A stretch of DNA of 64,000 nucleotides, from the NCBI GenBank assembly GCA_902500205.1, contig GCA_902500205.1_4868.1, one strand, 5' to 3'. A program made the position numbers and the translations under genes. The notes beneath the pieces were generated by a model. It saw only the letters and a list, made by a program, of their open reading frames with translations, was not told where the DNA came from and searched no databases. Below are positions 22,699-43,777 of the stretch, one piece after another (the first letter of the stretch is position 1; every line of letters starts with the position of its first letter). This DNA is from Escherichia coli. GTDB lineage: Bacteria > Pseudomonadota > Gammaproteobacteria > Enterobacterales > Enterobacteriaceae.

Positions 22699-22705
22699 GT
22701 CACTA

Positions 22706-22756
22706 GGCGTACTCTCTTCGGGGAGTACGCCAATCTTATTTTTTTTATTTTTTTGG
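22706..22756 (+). terminator. intrinsic terminator
   Basis: Hairpin GGCGTACTC-TCTTCGG-GGAGTACGCC followed by a long T-run. Confidence 0.7.
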
Positions 22757-23289
22757 TTACTTTTTAACCAACCGGTTAAAGGGGTCTGGGAAGCATCAGA
22801 AAACGATTAGGTGGTATCGACGTAGGGTAGCTCGTTTTTGGCAGTTTATCGTTTTCTAGGGTCTGTTACGTGCGTTTTAGAGGGGGTTATGTATCGAGAC
22901 AGAGAATTTATTTTTGTCGGGGCGAGGAAATTCAGGGAATGGGGATTCAGGATTGTATGTTTTTTAACCAGTTATTAAAAACGCTCTAGAAAGCGCTAGA
23001 ACGAGATTTAACTCAGACCCAGTACACTTGGGTTCCCTATACCGGAAAATCGCGCCAGCGGGCCGCTGAGAGCGCGAGAGAGCCATTCCCGTTTCGGTTC
23101 CGAGGTGACGGTCGCGGCCGGCGACGACGATCACACGTTGGGTAGCACTTCGTGCCATGTCTGGGTGAAAACTGGATCGTTCTGTAACCGACACACACTG
23201 TCGGTTACTTACGAGTTCTTTGGGTTGTTTAATTCACTCTAAAATCCCCCTTAGGGGATAATTTAATCTAATTCTCAAAATTTCTTTTT

Positions 23290-23560
23290 AAAACAATCAC
23301 TTAGATTGTTTTTTAGATTGATCCTGTGGATCGGGTCGAAGACCCTTTCCTTATACGCGTGCGCGTGCGCGCACCCGTATCCTCCAGGATCTTTTAAAAT
23401 ATATAATAATATTAAATATAATAATACCTTTAGGTATTATATTTAATTATTATAATTATTTATATAAATAAATATATTAATATATTAAGATCTTAAAACG
23501 CGTGCGGGCGCGCGCGTGATCCTTATTAAGAGATCGTGATCGGACGGAAGACCGAGATCG
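23290..23560. promoter_or_regulatory. GATC-rich AT island flanked by alternating CG tracts; candidate origin-like or unwinding element
   Basis: 8 GATC sites within 239 bp; a roughly 105-bp almost pure A/T core (23392..23497); flanking tracts ACGCGTGCGCGTGCGCGCAC and ACGCGTGCGGGCGCGCGCGTG; inverted repeat AAAACAATC..GATTGTTTT at 23290..23312. Confidence 0.4.
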
Positions 23561-24467
23561 GGTACCCTGTGTATTTTTTACGTGGTTTCCCTATCGTGTG
23601 TTCAGACCACCACTCGATGTCCAAAAACCCATAGCTTCGGTGGTCGCCTCCCTGGTCGGTAGACTCTGACAAGTCGACCCACACCACCAACCCGTCCGGG
23701 GACGGATTTTTATTCCAACGACAAGCTCCACGAAAATCCCCGCAGAGGGACTCACTGCTGTGTGACTCACCGGCTCCTGGACGCCTACGCCTCGAGCCGG
23801 TAATTTTTTGATTACGTGAGTTTGTTGTTATATGCGAATAGCGATTGACCGCGCCAATGGTCCAATCACTTTTTAAACCCTGCACGCTAGGGCTCCAAGT
23901 CCTGGGATTGATACCCAGGACGCTTTTTCGAAAATACCTGCCGTGGTGTCTTCGACAAAGCGCAATCTAACACTGCGTGATTTATTATGTTCTGGAAAAC
24001 TTTCGCCGTGGAACAGAACCGGTGAGCGTCGGCGGGGATTCCGACAATCACCACCCATTCAGGTACTCGGTAGATAACCGACCTGCCGACGGTGCTACGT
24101 CGGGCGTAGTTCGGTTTGCGAGAGTGTCGAGAAAGTCGACTGCGCACCCATGACAAAATCCGAGTTGACCGTGGCAGCGCCAGAGGACTGGGCAGCGGAG
24201 AGACGTCGTTGAACTTACCTCCGATAGTTATCGCTGATTCCGCTCTGGCGTCGGGCCAAAACTGATTCGAATTCGGCGTTGCGTCGAAAAGGGGTCTGCG
24301 TGTAGAACCGCAGACTTGGGGGATAACTCCAAAGTGGGGTGATCGGATCTTGACGGCTCGGAATAGACGAGAGGGGTGGGTACTCCCGTTGAGAAACGAC
24401 GGTACCTGGCTGATTAAAATTTACAGATTCTGCGTGAGGTATGATAAACCAAACGGAGAATTAAACC

Positions 24468-25043: not shown

Positions 25044-25531
25044 CGACGATAGCGTTCGACGGAAAAGTCTTAGCTGCTGACGGTCAGCTGACCCGCGGGT
25101 CGAATATCTGCAACCTGAACACCCAGAAGTTATTCATCTGCCCTTCTGACGAGGAATGGTGGATTACTGGTGAACGGATTGTGGCGTTCGGAGTAAGCGG
25201 TGACATCACAGGACAGTTGGCCCTGCTGGAAACGGTCCGCTTGAGACCCGGCTACAAGGGATTAACACAAAGCTCGCAGTTACCTACGAAGATGGATTTT
25301 ACTTTCCTGATGCTTTTGGCCTCAGGAAAAGCGATAGTCGGCGGAAAACGTGAAGACGACGTGACGTTGTGGTGGAGTGAAGCCACACCACCTCTGGCAA
25401 CCGGAAGCGGTTACGAGTATGCGTTGGGTGCGATGAAGATGGGCGCGAATGCGGTTCGTGCTGTTGAGATTGCGTCCGAATGCGATATCTACACCGGTGG
25501 TGAGATTAGCACTTACGAATTACGGAGGTGA
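25040..25531 (+). CDS. HslV-like Ntn-hydrolase peptidase (proteasome beta-type fold)
   Basis: Begins MTTIAFDGKVLAADGQ (Thr1 nucleophile exposed after Met removal, as in HslV MTTIVSV..GDGQ); GSGYEYALGAM and CDIYTGGEI match HslV GSGG..A.AA and ICIYTNH regions; GAGGAGG upstream. Confidence 0.75.
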   Translation: MTTIAFDGKVLAADGQLTRGSNICNLNTQKLFICPSDEEWWITGERIVAFGVSGDITGQLALLETVRLRPGYKGLTQSSQLPTKMDFTFLMLLASGKAIVGGKREDDVTLWWSEATPPLATGSGYEYALGAMKMGANAVRAVEIASECDIYTGGEISTYELRR

Positions 25532-25623
25532 ATCATGCGGGAGTCAGAAGCACGCAAGCTTGACCCCATCAATCGCCTGCGATAACGGGGTAGCGCATCC
25601 GTATAAACACGTTCAAGAATTCT

Positions 25624-25699
25624 AGGAAAGTGACGCAATTGGTAGCGTACCGGTCTCCAAAACCGGCTGTTTAGAGTTCGAGTCTCTACTTTCCTGCCA
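25624..25699 (+). tRNA. tRNA-Trp (anticodon CCA), 3' CCA encoded
   Basis: Manual cloverleaf: acceptor AGGAAAG/CTTTCCT, D-stem ACGC/GCGT with GG in loop, anticodon stem CCGGT/ACCGG with loop CTCCAAA, T-arm TAGAG-TTCGAGT-CTCTA. Confidence 0.85.
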
Positions 25700-25765
25700 C
25701 ATTTAGCCAACAAGGCCATGATTCAAAGCAGAATGACACCGAATGTCTAACTGCGGAGAATAATC

Positions 25766-26008
25766 ATGAACTTGTATTTGCTAGAACGAACTGACGATAT
25801 CGGGTATGATGAATTTGATTCCATAATCGTGGCGGCTCCTACGGAGCAAGCCGCGTGTGCAATTCCTCCCGACCGTGGTCATTGGATGGACTGCCGCTGG
25901 TTACCGAAAGAGCGCTGGGATGAAGGGCTTACCCTGACCGTTACCCTTATCGGCACTACGCACTATCCTGCTGGGACCGTCGTTCATGAATCGTTCAATG
26001 CTGGCTAA
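25766..26008 (+). CDS. hypothetical small protein, N-terminal paralog of gene 24468
   Basis: Same leader and MNLY start as 24468; followed by a UUCG-loop hairpin at about 26012..26030. Confidence 0.5.
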   Translation: MNLYLLERTDDIGYDEFDSIIVAAPTEQAACAIPPDRGHWMDCRWLPKERWDEGLTLTVTLIGTTHYPAGTVVHESFNAG

Positions 26009-27047
26009 ACAGTGGGCTTCGGCCCACTAACCCTATTCGAGCCATGATACTTACTCAGATTGTGCGGGTTGATGTCCCGCATGAGCCGGTAGCAGCTCAG
26101 ACCTACGGTAAACCGATAAATCCGTAGCAGCCAGGTACACAAAGCACCAGGTCGCTTGTACAGGATGCTGGGTATCTGACCGGTCATAACCTCATTCGAT
26201 ACGAGACACGTTTATGCATGAAATATTCCAGTACATCAGGATGTTGATTTCAAACGTCCGGTTCTGGGTATTCAATCATGTTTGGTTTACAGGCGATGGG
26301 TTTTCCCGCAAGGGCCCCACTTACAGACTGGCGTCTCCACGACAACCGTCCCTAGGGGACAGGCAAGCACCGGCCCATTAAGCCGCCATGCTACGCCTGT
26401 AAATCCACAATCTGATAACCGAATGGGATTGAGTTCCCAGTGTTAGGGTGACTGTGTGTCACCGTAGGCGCGGTACCTCATACGGCCGGTACGCCACGAA
26501 TGTACGTGATAGCAGGTGGTGCTTGGAGACGCTAAGACCTGACCTTACGGCCAGGCTCAGAAGAAGAAGTTCATCACCCGCATTCAGAAATGAATTTAGG
26601 TTAATTATTGGAAGTGGTGAAATCGTTTACGTGATAACTTAGTAGTATGCAACGAACAATACCAGAGTGACTTTACGAGGTTACTGTGGTATATGTCGGT
26701 GCGCCGGGCAACGTGTTGCCGCAGATAAGCCCGAGGGAGCTGAATGCACTAACACACGCCGGGATGCACCGGCACCTTACAATGGGAGCGCTGTCACCAT
26801 CAGTGATGACAGGAGTGAAGGATTCGTACCTCACTCGACTGGGCGGAAGCCTGGGCGTTCCCCCATCTTCACATCATGGCCGGCTTGCCGGTTCAACGTA
26901 GACGTCTCGTAAGAGATTTCCAGTCAGGCAACTGATAACACACCTAAGCGTCGACCTTGGACGTATGGTGTCTGGTTAAGTCCCCCGAAACGGAAACCAG
27001 TAGGGGTGTGGTACGTTGAGTGTAACTATCATGATGCCATGAACAAT

Positions 27048-27117
27048 GGCTTTGTAGCTCAGGTAGGTAGAGCAGCCTCTTCGAGGAAGGTCGCCGGTTC
27101 GAGACCGGTCAAAGCAA
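27048..27117 (+). pseudogene. tRNA-like element with truncated anticodon arm (degenerate tRNA?)
   Basis: Good acceptor (6 of 7 bp), D-arm GCTC-AGGTAGGTA-GAGC and T-arm GCCGG-TTCGAGA-CCGGT, but the anticodon arm is only CCTC-TTC-GAGG. Confidence 0.3.
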
Positions 27118-27119
27118 GA

Positions 27120-27189
27120 GCAGTGAAGTTAGAGGAATTAACACCCGACTCATAATCGGATATTTCGCGGGTTCGAATCCCTGCCACTT
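27120..27189 (+). pseudogene. tRNA-like element with CAU anticodon loop (degenerate tRNA-Met/Ile-like?)
   Basis: D-arm GTTA-GAGGAAT-TAAC and anticodon arm CCGA-CTCATAA-TCGG are fine, T-loop GGGTTCGAATCCC present, but T-stem and acceptor pair poorly. Confidence 0.3.
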
Positions 27190-27572
27190 GCTCGCCCCAT
27201 TTGTGTTATCCTTATCCCGAAGGCATTCGAAATAAGACGCGTATCCACACACGGGTCAAGGGTAACACGAACCACTTCCGCGGTCACCGTGTCCATTGCC
27301 GCCTACCTGCATGGGCTGTCCTCCGACACGGTGACTTCGGGCCAACTTACAGGCCAGGGCTGTTTGGGTTTTTCTTACGCATCCATCCAGAGCCACCTCG
27401 CGCCCTAGTCTGTATACCCCTTTTCTGTTCCTGGTTTGCCAACTAAATCAATTAAGCCTGGTGCGTTGCCCTGGGAACAGAAAAACTTATTCGGTTACAC
27501 ACCGAACCCACCCACGAGGGATATGTCGTGGACCACCAATAGAAGCAGCAATAGTAGTAAGAAGGAAGCAAC

Positions 27573-28394
27573 ATGTTTACAGTTAAACGTGTAATTGATG
27601 GTGACCGCATTATTACCGAGCATGAAAAGGTTCGTATCGGTGACCGTAAGTCTCGTGTATTCCGCGAGGCATTAAAAATGCTCGAGAACGAGCGCTTCGA
27701 CATCGTTGTCGATGATGAAAAGTTAGCCCTTAATCCGGGGTTAAAACGCGTTGCCCCTGATGTGCCTGATCCGAACACCATGCATTTGTCTGACTACTGC
27801 AGCTGGTCGCACAGATTATATAAAAGTCAGGTTTATGCACACACGTATTTGCGGCAGCTTTTCCCCAACCTTATTATCCCCGATTTGGAAACGGTCGAGG
27901 TGTTTAACTGCAACGCACGCGAGTTTATTAGCTACGTGCTAGATAATAAGGGCAATGCTATCTTGGTACTGGACACAAATTCCAGTATACCTGATGCTGT
28001 GGCTAGCATACGTGGTGAAATCGTCGGTTACGGTACTCCCCCAGAGAAATTAGGCTGGTACAAACCATCTCCTGATAGCGACATGGCGATCATTGTCTAC
28101 ACTCAGGAAGAACTGCAACAAGTCGAATTAGAGCCTGGTCCATCTATCGAGTTCACTGATGTCCAGGAGCAAACGCAGTGGGTTAACGGTGAGTGCGTTG
28201 TTACTGTTTTAAAAGGCGCTCGCCCTGGCGACCGGTCAGTCGATGAACTGATTGGCGCAATGTGCATCGAAGAAGAATCTGGGTACGATCCTGATAACCA
28301 GATCAGTGCCGGTGCGTTGTACGAACTGTTTTATAAAGGCGACGAAGTCTACGTGGTTAACTCTCACGGTAAGACTACCGACGCCCTTCGCTGA
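27573..28394 (+). CDS. hypothetical protein (273 aa)
   Basis: AAGGAAG upstream of ATG; terminator downstream. Confidence 0.6.
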   Translation: MFTVKRVIDGDRIITEHEKVRIGDRKSRVFREALKMLENERFDIVVDDEKLALNPGLKRVAPDVPDPNTMHLSDYCSWSHRLYKSQVYAHTYLRQLFPNLIIPDLETVEVFNCNAREFISYVLDNKGNAILVLDTNSSIPDAVASIRGEIVGYGTPPEKLGWYKPSPDSDMAIIVYTQEELQQVELEPGPSIEFTDVQEQTQWVNGECVVTVLKGARPGDRSVDELIGAMCIEEESGYDPDNQISAGALYELFYKGDEVYVVNSHGKTTDALR

Positions 28395-28484
28395 ATTAGC
28401 TAACGCCCAGTAGCTATGTTCCTGACGATTAGCCCTCGTCTGACCTTGTAAGACCTTGTAGATTTACATGCCAACACCAGGGAA

Positions 28485-28527
28485 GTCCTCACTCTTCGGA
28501 GTGAGGACAACTCTTTTATTTTTTTTG
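28485..28527 (+). terminator. intrinsic terminator
   Basis: Hairpin GTCCTCACTC-TTCG-GAGTGAGGAC plus T-run. Confidence 0.75.
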
Positions 28528-28543
28528 TATTCCAAATATACAC

Positions 28544-28564
28544 AGATAGATATTACCTAAGTGA
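28544..28564 (+). promoter_or_regulatory. phage promoter-like motif, class 1 (AGATAGATATTACCTAAGTGA)
   Basis: Conserved motif copy directly after a terminator and upstream of gene 28618. Confidence 0.5.
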
Positions 28565-28617
28565 GATGAGAAAGCCTCATCTGAATTCTCCCAACTCGAC
28601 TATAAAAGGTATGCATC

Positions 28618-41825: not shown

Positions 41826-43777
41826 GTGAGAAAGGTACCAAAATTCTACGGAATATCCGGCCGGTTGGTTAGTCAGGATAACTATTTGTCCGATTTGCAA
41901 ATAGAAGCTGCTGCCAAAGGTATTAAACCACCCACTATTATTAACGATGTCGCCGTTAACGGGGATGCGATCGAGGTTGCTGAACTTATCGATCGCATGG
42001 TACAGAACAGAATCGTTGACGAAGAACTGAACTCTGCACCGATTTGTAGTTTGGATTGTCCGGCACCGATCGCGCATCGTTACAATCTCGGTTGTAAGTG
42101 TCCGACGTGTGGCTATGTTGTAACTGAACATCGAATTGAATCCGATGTCTGGTTACGTGCACCCGATGAAATGGGTAACTTCGTCAACCCACGATTCTGG
42201 GCAATGTTCAATGCTTTCTTTAATAGCAAGTTGAAGAAGTTTGAACGTAACAAGGTCACTATCGAACGCGGTAATGACTTGATGATGTGGATGATTGACC
42301 CGTATTACCGTATAGAAGAACCAGACGGTAAACGCGCACATGCTGTGAAACGTGTATTGGAAGAACATGGTTTCGTTCGTGGCTTGCGCAATCTGGTTGA
42401 TAACCACGTTAGTATCTTTAACATCCTTACCACGCCAGAAGCCTGGAAGGAAATCTTCGCACCTAATCGGCATAACGCCGCTGAAGGTGAACGCTTACGT
42501 TTACAATGGAAGGAGCTATTCGAAACGCAACGCCATGCATTCTTCCCAAGACACTTACCGCTAATCTCCTCTAAGCTTATCGTTACTGAGGAAGGTCGTC
42601 GTGGTGTCATGGTAGACCCAGTGTTCACGGGTGCTATCGATGCGGTGAAAAATATCGCGTTACTTTATACGCGGCGTAAAGCGATCGAACCACGTTTTCT
42701 GATTAGTCGCGCTTTGAAAGCCAACCGTCAGTTAACGTACTTCCACATGGACTTCCGTCGTGAGTCTATGGAAGGTAAACCGGGTGACTATCGTGCGAAA
42801 TTGGGTTCTACCCATATCCCATTCGGTGGTCGTGCAACCATCTCACCTATCTCAGAACCACACGATGCCTGGAAGTTAAAAGCACCATGGCGTTGGATGG
42901 TTGGGTTGATGTCGACCCACATCGAGAACAAACTGCTACGACGGGGTTATTCGTCACGGCAATGTGAACGTATCGTTGCAAAAGCGGCAATGCAGTATGA
43001 CCCGCTTGTAGATGAAATCTTTAAAGAACTGATTCGTGAATCCCCAGGCGGTCTTGGGATCATGGTCATACCGCTACGTAACCCAACGCTGGTACAGTTG
43101 TCTATTCAAACGCTGTACATCGATGAAGTTGTTACCGATGTTAACCAGTGTTCGCTGCGTATCTCTGACCGTGTGATCAAGATGGCTAACGGTTCGAAAA
43201 GAGCCCCATCGGACGGGAAACCTCTGATGCGTATTCTCCTGAAATGCTGGGAAACCCTAAAGCGTATCTACCAGAAATGGGGACGAAAGTCTGAAACAAC
43301 AGATACGATGGCCTACGCTAAACAATACTGCTAACGGTTGTGATAATGGGTAATCAGCAGCGAAGCCTCGTGAGAGGAACGTTCAACGACTATCGCTGAA
43401 ATGCGAGTAGGGGTCCCAGTGGACTTCGAAGTGGGAGAACACCTAAGGCGATAGCTATGGTGAAGATATAGTCTGTGCCTTATCGAGAGATAAGGAGGGT
43501 GTCTTAGCACACCTGCTGTATACGGAAACGGTATACGGTGGACAAACAGGATTTCGATGGCGACCAGTTCCAGGTACGTTTGCCAGTCGATGAAACTGAG
43601 ATGAAGTTGGCGCTCCAATTCCGTCCAGATAACGGCTTTATGTCTTCTACTGATGTGGACCGCGTAGAACACGGCATGGTTTTACATAACGAGCTAATCA
43701 GTATGCAGAACCAGTTCCTTATTGAAGCAGATGAGGATGATGAAGAAGGCATTCCGTTGGAAGCGGTGATGGGCTAA
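41826..43777 (+). CDS. RNA polymerase beta-prime subunit, N-terminal fragment, interrupted by a group I intron (exon 1 from 41826 to about 43166, exon 2 from about 43532 to 43777)
   Basis: Zn-finger-like CSLDC..CKCPTC; NPTLVQLSIQ matches beta-prime APTLHRLGIQ; exon 2 carries DFDGDQFQVRLP (catalytic NADFDGDQ); GTG start with GAGG upstream. Confidence 0.7.
43167..43531 (+). ncRNA. group I self-splicing intron (boundaries approximate)
   Basis: Canonical core elements: Q-like AATCAGCAGC (43351), R GTTCAACGACTA (43381..43392), S AAGATATAGTC (43463..43473, identical to the Tetrahymena S element), P9 hairpin CCTTATC..GATAAGG; 5' exon can end in T and intron in G with frame restored. Confidence 0.7.

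Follow-up and report, generated by a model that had tools for sequence, protein, structure and literature searches.

A candidate family of large phage RNA beside a probably reduced tRNA island in an SPN3US-like jumbo phage

Two families of large structured RNA, GOLLD and ROOL, lie near phage tRNA islands, and GOLLD is built of two structured regions with a less conserved linker (PMC12286853). In phage T4, the tRNA cluster gives one precursor that contains tRNAs, the species I and II RNAs and segB, whose product cuts at the T-arm sequences of tRNAs and causes the cluster to be replaced (PMC2330249). The content of T4-type clusters varies between related phages (PMC2330249; PMC9697503). Here we describe positions 25,532 to 27,572 of a 64,000-nucleotide stretch of DNA (the window) from the Escherichia coli assembly GCA_902500205.1, contig GCA_902500205.1_4868.1. 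The locus is bounded by the end of an HslV-like peptidase gene (25531) and the start of a 273-codon gene (27573), and over 25400-27700 the DNA shares 96-98% identity with SPN3US-like jumbo phages (genus Seoulvirus) from Salmonella, E. coli and Proteus. We think that this stretch is probably the reduced form of a tRNA and small-RNA island, and that it carries a module of ~520 nt (26061-26581) representing a new candidate family of large phage RNA.

The island is found at the same position in every SPN3US-related jumbo phage examined, across the genera Seoulvirus, Machinavirus, Erskinevirus and Wellingtonvirus, and all of its genes and elements are oriented rightward (+ strand). Its RNA modules, 70-95% identical across genera, can be aligned as DNA between genera, as can tRNA-Trp and part of an 80-codon open reading frame (ORF), whereas the larger flanking genes, including those downstream, no longer align. 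Every module but one lineage-specific segment (F, described below) is conserved across genera with compensatory base-pair changes. An earlier reading of this DNA from its letters alone (the sequence-only reading) had seen no credible ORF here. That view did not survive comparison, given the 80-codon ORF (phrog_5444) and a conserved 55-codon ORF; judged from the alignments, the apparent spacer is itself a set of conserved RNA modules and two small genes. The same reading called the stretch structured, which covariation across genera bears out, but single-sequence z-scores are only -0.9 to -3.1. Since these single-sequence energies are unimpressive, perfect-looking hairpins are not evidence on their own.

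The ~520-nt module consists of a 5´ RNA domain, a small ORF and a 3´ RNA domain. Aligning the whole intergenic region reveals it in the four genera, in each case with the last upstream gene on one side and the tRNA array on the other. Positions 26364-26585 are the most conserved inter-genus DNA of the locality, with 70-80% identity in about 23 Erwinia phages. Base pairs were counted over 18 distinct sequences from one phage clade: 87.7% of cells pair at the modelled positions, compared with 31-43% when partners are slid, double changes are present in 42 of the 90 modelled pairs, and none of 500 shuffles reached the observed covariation.

The 5´ domain (26061-26196, +), delineated by covariation and pair counts, is pseudoknotted. 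It opens with hairpin H1 (26061-26083), in which the GGG/CCC base is invariant and the loop, of 7 nt, is conserved. Helix H2 (26085-90 with 26179-84) then encloses H3 (26103-27) and H4 (26133-77), the latter with the invariant internal loop ACAAAGCA. H3, H4a and H4b are 99-100% paired, with double changes in 12 of 16 pairs. The pseudoknot is formed by 4 bp between the H1 loop (26071-74) and 26193-96; 94% of cells are paired here, as against 25-56% in slid controls, and the pairing takes the forms GAUG/CAUU, GGUA/UACU and GAUA/UAUC among phages.

The 3´ domain (26286-26581, +), defined by the same two kinds of evidence, begins within the small ORF, where a long-range pairing (26286-95 with 26394-403) and small hairpins are weakly supported. 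Support is good for the elements that follow: a covarying hairpin at 26366-92 with the stop codon of the ORF in its loop, hairpin a (26424-39), hairpin b (26447-63, loop UGUGU), and the closing helix X (26512-24 with 26567-81), which surrounds hairpin d (26532-60) and an internal loop rich in purines. Pairing in helix X reaches 99.4%, with covariation (one of its pairs is UA in 8 sequences, GC in 7, AU in 2 and CG in 1), and helix d is 96% paired. Two blocks, GGTGCTTGGAG and GAAGAAGTCCATC, are invariant in 17 of the 18 sequences. In Wellington (L036, 1880-1975) and Kwan, the closing helix GGAGGGGAUG/CAUCCCCUCC is kept.

Between hairpin b and helix X lies a variable hairpin c, at ~26466-26500 (CGGUACCUCAUACGGCCGG; GCGCGGUACCUCAUACGGCCGGUACGC). 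It resembles the L17 ribosomal-protein leader in the window, Asesino and pSal04, and is replaced by a different hairpin in other phages. In the window it matches the loop of the Rfam L17 leader at 18 of 19 positions (22 bits, sub-threshold). Nearly identical copies are also present in UViG_3300011862, UViG_3300031420 and UViG_3300011741, so that three genera share a hairpin that is unrelated in closer relatives. This patchy distribution suggests that modules have been exchanged. A blastn search of hairpin c against E. coli genomes gave no match, which at that database size is uninformative.

Rfam was scanned at gathering score over the whole window and with E values up to 10 over 25400-27700. 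The latter scan returned only tRNA hits and noise, the noise being the L17 leader at 22 bits, YrlA at 15.6, CRISPR-DR41 at 18 and IRES_Bip at 10; for the module, there was no match to GOLLD, ROOL, RNase P, a group I or II intron, tmRNA, 6S or a riboswitch at E values up to 10, and neither GOLLD nor ROOL reached its gathering score anywhere in the window. Two motif patterns had zero matches over 185,579 bacterial and archaeal genomes, and motif scans of viral and metagenome sequences matched only the same jumbo-phage clade. Within the window, nhmmer finds each module once. We found no description of these RNAs in SPN3US-like phages in the literature. On our reading, the module would add to GOLLD and ROOL a third such family of large RNA associated with phage tRNA islands.

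That the module is instead a diverged catalytic or housekeeping RNA of a known kind, be it an RNase P RNA, group I intron or tmRNA, seems hardly credible to us, although each identity has some resemblance to speak for it. Helix X and its bulge, together with the purine runs beside it (GGUGCUU ... GAAGAAG-UC-CAUCACC), are reminiscent of RNase P P4, and GGAGAC ... AAGAAGUCC of the R and S elements of group I introns; tmRNA is suggested by an ORF that is enclosed by structured domains and stops inside a hairpin. However, the scan of 25400-27700 matched none of these models, while the same library finds a group I intron elsewhere in the window (43174-43495). Topology also differs, as helix X encloses only hairpin d, unlike P4 or P7, and no exon halves or split gene flank the module. 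For tmRNA, ARAGORN finds none in the window, and the ORF has an AUG start and 55-69 codons. All three identities were rejected on model scans and topology.

The small ORF (26214-26381, +) has 55 codons in the window and encodes 55-69 amino acids in relatives. It is recognized by its conserved frame and a weak match to phrog_26199 (E value 1.5e-4), is uninterrupted up to a shared TAA stop in each of the 19 homologues examined (18 distinct), and is annotated as gp9 in Machina. Differences at codon positions 1, 2 and 3 number 73/41/100 and 37/16/41, a coding-like bias. The predicted peptide is amphipathic towards its N-terminus, contains the motif W..(L/F)..(H/T)(Y/V)W(L/F)(T/S)G.G, and has a C-terminus reading QAPAH, PAPDC or QAPER. 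The 3´ half of the ORF overlaps the 3´ RNA domain, and its last ~30 codons are 100% identical in nucleotide sequence between the window and SPAsTU. By contrast, the N-terminal half is the most variable part of the module, and conservation of the RNA blocks exceeds that of the peptide.

The association of an ORF with two structured domains raises the main rival to an RNA with a role of its own, namely that the domains are only regulatory untranslated regions (UTRs) of the small gene, the 5´ domain serving as a riboswitch-like or protein-binding leader and the 3´ domain as a stabilizer or terminator. Several features fit: the ORF is conserved and coding-like, the stop codon lies in the loop of a covarying hairpin, and the 3´ strand of the pseudoknot is directly followed by a Shine-Dalgarno-like AGGUGA, CGGUGA or CGAUGAG, 6-20 nt before the AUG. 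A switch of this kind would call for an alternative to the pseudoknot, and we considered a hairpin that sequesters the Shine-Dalgarno sequence; at -0.7 to -5.4 kcal/mol, it was rejected as too weak and too inconsistent. No known riboswitch model matches, and the stronger conservation of the RNA blocks also speaks against a purely regulatory role. Nucleus-forming phages (chimalliviruses) transcribe inside the phage nucleus and translate outside it, and SPN3US-related jumbo phages are, we presume, nucleus-forming. Attenuation by coupled translation of the Trp-containing ORF was set aside because such phages separate transcription from translation; the separation excludes coupling of the attenuation type, though not translational control. 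Finally, several lineages carry the promoter-like TATATATG between the 5´ domain and the AUG, so that the 5´ domain would fall outside the mRNA (PMC5312081). On balance, we regard it as unlikely that the domains are UTRs and nothing else.

In our view, the module is most likely a dual-function transcript. We would ascribe a separate role to its RNA domains because conservation is higher in them than in the peptide, above all than in the N-terminal half. Asked about the role of the module by itself, we would lay a little under half of our expectation on an RNA in its own right, about a third on cis-regulatory UTRs, and the remaining fifth on a scaffold by which the array is processed or terminated. 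A more specific proposal is that the module is an undescribed large RNA class of SPN3US-related phages, dual in function, which acts on the adjacent tRNA island or binds a ribosomal or tRNA-binding protein, with the small RNAs E and A described below as its partners. We put this forward as a possible but doubtful reading. Were it correct, the 5´ domain and the purine-rich 3´ core might serve the maturation, protection, sorting or export of tRNA precursors formed within the phage nucleus.

Downstream of the module lie two tRNA-like elements in tandem, which we call A (27048-27117, +) and B (27118-27193, +). The sequence-only reading had proposed both, each with a CAU anticodon loop, as decaying tRNAs, tRNA-derived processing signals or non-canonical tRNAs. 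Both are indeed tRNA-like and non-canonical, and ARAGORN calls neither; however, the CAU loop belongs to B only, and A alone exceeds the Rfam tRNA gathering score of 29. The boundaries proposed for A are correct, whereas those of B needed correction: by comparison with relatives, its 5´ end shifts from 27120 to 27118, where GAGC (27118-21) pairs with GCUC (27190-93) and covaries with GAAC/GUUC in other phages.

Element A scores 36.4 bits against the Rfam tRNA model (E value 5.5e-4 for the whole window, 2e-5 for the region) and has canonical D and T arms with a 6-bp acceptor stem. Its anticodon stem, CCUC/GAGG, is capped by a UUCG tetraloop (27080-83) and so presents no anticodon; a decoding loop has 7 nt with U33 and a purine at 37, and that of A has 4 nt. 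In orthologues, the loop is UUCG, UUUG or AUCG among Seoulviruses, GUAA in Stratton, and 6-7 nt without U33 in others. Some carry inserts in the anticodon arm, of 38 nt in SPAsTU (L004, 3247-3354) and ~25-50 nt in Machina (L010, 4918-5014), Asesino (L007, 3807-3927) and Stratton. The rest of the molecule is under different constraints. The acceptor stem covaries (GGCUUUG/CAAAGC, GGUUUC/GAAAC, GGCUCCG/CGGAGC), the T arm GGUUCRARUCC is kept among orthologues, and the acceptor, D and T arms are identical in the window and SPAsTU, where only the loop differs. Since the parts seen by processing enzymes are kept while the anticodon loop is not conserved, A is, on present comparisons, most aptly regarded as a conserved RNA with the shape of a tRNA but no decoding loop, rather than as a decoder. 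Genome annotators have noticed these tRNA-like elements in part and offered no explanation. The site of A is labelled tRNA-OTHER (NC_027402, overlapping), 'tRNA-Asp' (Proteus phage 7), tRNA-Pro(cgg), or, in several Erwinia phages, tRNA-Ile(aat) with an 'intron'. Such inconsistent isotype labels inflate or distort phage tRNA inventories.

Element B appears to be a non-canonical tRNA(CAU). It has the 7-nt loop CUCAUAA, with U33, a purine at 37 and the anticodon CAU at 27151-27153, but scores only 23.8 bits (E value 0.058), below threshold. Orthologues reach 31-34 bits in other Seoulviruses and 44-48 bits in Machinaviruses, the window being lowest, and ARAGORN calls tRNA-Met(cat) at the orthologous site in Caitlin and pSal04, while finding only tRNA-Trp in every Seoulvirus locus. 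A U bulges from the 8-bp acceptor stem, and the T stem has one surplus U on its 3´ side, shared by the window and phage 1252, which may impair B in the window. Even among Seoulviruses that are 96-98% identical, some have GCGGG/CCCGU as T stem and others GACGG/CCGUC, and the acceptor includes GUG/CAC or GCG/CG(U); these paired changes are a signature of selection for pairing. In the region scan, the sole Rfam match of B beyond the general tRNA model is antisense to RF04354 (Plastid-ycf2). The reverse complement of the RF04354 consensus reads as a tRNA with anticodon CAU, which we take to be plastid trnI(CAU), and because of this we favor an Ile2-type tRNA, although Ile2 and Met are not separable by sequence. 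B shares with tRNA-Ile2 the loop CUCAUAA and, in its relatives, a D loop with a UGGUUAA-like sequence, and it departs from tRNA-Ile2 in its bulged 8-bp acceptor stem, extra T-stem U and sub-threshold score.

The A-B tandem lies directly upstream of tRNA-Asn in Seoulviruses, Machinaviruses and Erskineviruses, so that no fewer than three of the four related genera have this arrangement. Compared with SPAsTU, the window is ~91-97% identical over A and B (the 38-nt SPAsTU insert excluded) and 74-79% identical in the flanks. Together with the compensatory changes, this indicates that A and B are conserved under selection and are not drifting pseudogenes.

A third small RNA, element E (26784-26865, +), is predicted as a 79-nt cloverleaf (26784-26862) followed by CCA (26863-65). 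The acceptor-like stem is 8 bp long, and one of the three arms ends in a GGAA tetraloop; the D- and T-loop sequences of tRNA are lacking. RNAalifold on five sequences gives 29 pairs, five with double changes. E is 95% identical in SPAsTU and 90.6% in Asesino, where it stands unannotated between tRNA-Ile and tRNA-His. The sequence ACAATGG precedes both E and A. Between the two lies segment F (26866-27047, +; fold z-score -2.26), a spacer that blastn against all loci finds in window-type Seoulviruses only. E and F are absent together (257 bases, 26786-27042) from SPN3US (L001), SEGD1, Lh1B, EC001, SPLA3, JN03 and SaP7. At the junction, the alignment blocks of the window and SPN3US overlap by 7 bases, which suggests deletion between short repeats.

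The island ends in two trailer hairpins (27200-27341, +), T1 (27200-27272) and T2 (27278-27341), for which RNAalifold on seven sequences from three genera predicts 40 pairs, 19 with double changes. In relatives from three genera, these hairpins directly follow tRNA-Asn, the last tRNA. T2 is the GTCACCGTGTC..GACACGGTGAC hairpin of the sequence-only reading, a genuine stem of 16 bp, but it lies downstream of A and B and not between them and tRNA-Trp.

At the homologous place, a sensitive DNA search and annotated records place arrays of 3-12 canonical tRNAs in relatives. The array is Tyr, Glu, Asp, Ile, Gln, Asn in SPAsTU and Tyr, Ile2(CAU), Asn in pEa_SNUABM_29; Asesino has ten tRNAs in its main array and Trp and Cys upstream, and the sets differ again in Stratton, Machina, Caitlin, ChrisDB, Wellington and others. 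The window has none of the six tRNAs of the SPAsTU array. Its close relative MET_P1_082_240 retains tRNA-Asn directly after B, and by comparison the window, SPN3US and Proteus phage 7 show a clean 80-nt loss. HNH genes are present in the arrays of phage 1252 (L003, 2857-3396, directly after B, the site of tRNA-Asn elsewhere) and pEa_SNUABM_29 (L005, 2367-2903). With tRNA sets that vary, losses of tRNA-Asn and of E and F, and HNH genes within arrays, the array is, as far as these comparisons go, in flux and strongly reduced in the lineage of the window.

This raises the question of whether nothing but decay is at work, with A and B as pseudogenes, the rest junk spacer and the hairpins incidental. 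The shrunken Seoulvirus array, with Asn lost and Tyr to Gln lost relative to SPAsTU, fits such an account, as do the deletion of E and F in SPN3US, the weak single-sequence z-scores, and the fall in the score of B from 44-48 bits in Machinaviruses to 24-34 bits in Seoulviruses, with the minimum in the window. We nevertheless consider pure decay quite improbable. Decay would not keep modules across genera while the larger genes around them become unalignable, nor produce double changes in 42 of 90 module pairs and 19 of 40 trailer pairs, compensatory changes in the stems of B among near-identical phages, or an A whose acceptor, D and T arms are identical in the window and SPAsTU with variation in the loop alone. 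The earlier suggestion of decaying tRNAs thus describes the array as a whole, which is eroded, and not A and B, which are conserved with compensatory changes; the suggestion of non-canonical tRNAs fits B, whereas A has no decoding loop.

Upstream of the module, the island starts with a canonical tRNA-Trp(CCA) with an encoded CCA end (25624-25699, +). ARAGORN and Rfam (RF00005, 63.6 bits) agree on this textbook tRNA, as the sequence-only reading had it; it is the sole tRNA that ARAGORN finds in the whole 64 kb, and it is annotated in all relatives. Next comes the 80-codon conserved ORF (25766-26008, +; phrog_5444, E value 5.9e-36), annotated as gp264 in SPN3US and with homologues in Machina, Asesino and others, followed directly by a GUGGGC-UUCG-GCCCAC hairpin (26012-26027). 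Between the module and E lies a leader of the tRNA-like set (26659-26774, +; fold z-score -3.06). A first hairpin occupies 26659-92 and a second, long one 26694-26774, with the motif GGTATATG at 26688-95; the leader region is immediately followed by tRNA-Tyr in relatives.

The motif GGTATATG is a candidate for a TATG-type promoter. In phiKZ, the late promoter of the non-virion RNA polymerase (nvRNAP) is TATG, with transcription starting at the G (PMC5312081), and phiKZ tRNAs depend on nvRNAP (PMC12571901). The sequence TATATGTCGG is conserved in Seoulviruses and the Caitlin group, and in Wellington TATATATG lies 2 nt upstream of tRNA-Gly. The nine plus-strand sites of the TATATG motif show no clear tie to gene starts. 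Counts of sigma-70 promoters and intrinsic terminators are not above those in shuffled sequence.

We regard the following as the most likely course of expression. The phage nvRNAP would start at TATG-type motifs, among them TATATG at 26690, and yield a multi-gene precursor from which host RNase P and 3´-end enzymes would excise each unit with an acceptor-stem/T-arm-like structure, as in the T4 cluster (PMC2330249). E and A share the leader ACAAU|GG. B would still decode AUA, after lysidine modification, or AUG. A and E would be stable, non-decoding tRNA mimics; they would be partners in processing, or would engage factors that bind tRNA as their ligands or decoys.

A number of observations weigh against the island and module as we interpret them. 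The otherwise invariant GGUGCUUGGAG...GAAGAAGUCCAUC 3´ core has been replaced in Wellington and Kwan. The sequence set is shallow (18 distinct sequences, one clade), so inherited changes are counted repeatedly. Helices inside the ORF are only 61-76% paired, with A.C as frequent as G.U. The single-sequence z-scores of the two RNA domains on the + strand are -1.45 and -0.93, and the RNAalifold preference for that strand is modest. Both E and F are absent from SPN3US itself, and so would be dispensable for growth. B is below the tRNA threshold in the window and may already be non-functional in its phage. Transcript ends, processing and stability in SPN3US-like phages are all read from sequence here. 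Two further points, that the 3´ domain alone folds better on the minus strand (z-score -3.84) and that a strand-neutral structure of this domain has G.U and A.C in near-equal number (30 and 31), also bear on whether the hairpins act as DNA or on the opposite strand, for example as an origin of replication, as a signal for packaging or in a transcript of the minus strand. It could be added that many database records of these phages begin within a few kb, but record starts are arbitrary by convention (the HslV gene is gp1), and GC skew has no turning point at the locus. The well-supported helices contain far more G.U than A.C, 60 against 2 in the 5´ domain and 39 against 2 for helices a, b, X and d taken together, which places the fold on the + strand. 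GNRA tetraloops (GCAA, GUGA, GGAA) are correct only on this strand, and the neighboring tRNAs and ORFs are all on it as well. We therefore consider a role as DNA or on the minus strand very unlikely, and retain the reading of a plus-strand RNA.

Other parts of the window also have non-coding sequence. The intergenic region between the 273-codon gene and a 316-codon gene (28456-28604) has 77% identity to Asesino (L007, 4368-4516), whereas the genes on either side are unalignable as DNA, and it may be another conserved non-coding element. Upstream of the tRNA-Trp region, 22699-23525 (827 bases) and 23886-24467 (582 bases) contain no ORF of at least 100 codons and match no Rfam family at gathering score. 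The group I intron at 43174-43495 (+; Rfam 69.4 bits, E value 1.6e-15, full model length) presumably interrupts a phage gene.

GOLLD and ROOL are among the best-known orphan RNAs, with structures solved and function still unknown. A third, unrelated family, if real, would be a tractable system for the roles of RNA at tRNA islands. Its hosts are culturable Salmonella, E. coli and Erwinia phages, and natural variants exist in SPN3US, without E and F, and in Wellington, with its replaced 3´ core. The RNAs of the island would also bear on how tRNA precursors are processed and exported in phages that, as we presume of this group, separate transcription from translation.

Comparison with the described systems shows where the island stands. 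Like T4, it mixes tRNAs with tRNA-sized RNAs (E and A), and its relatives have homing endonuclease genes within their arrays; these are HNH enzymes, unlike the GIY-YIG endonuclease segB. By context, E and A would fit the pattern of the T4 species I and II RNAs (RNAC and RNAD). Like mascRNA and the tRNA-like module of YrlA, A retains the acceptor, D and T arms that processing enzymes recognize and lacks an anticodon loop that could be used, but the A region and its relatives give only weak, sub-threshold matches to these families in Rfam, and neither a Ro60-like gene nor a MALAT1-like host transcript is associated with A. The ~520-nt module is closest to GOLLD and ROOL. Like them, it is large, multi-helix, pseudoknotted, supported by covariation, phage-encoded and, in four genera, directly upstream of the tRNA array, and like GOLLD it joins two structured regions through a less conserved linker (PMC12286853). 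Unlike them, it has no covariance-model match, its sequence and helices are unrelated, and it is smaller and confined to one clade of Enterobacterales jumbo phages; moreover, its linker holds a conserved, apparently translated ORF of 55-69 codons that overlaps the 3´ domain.

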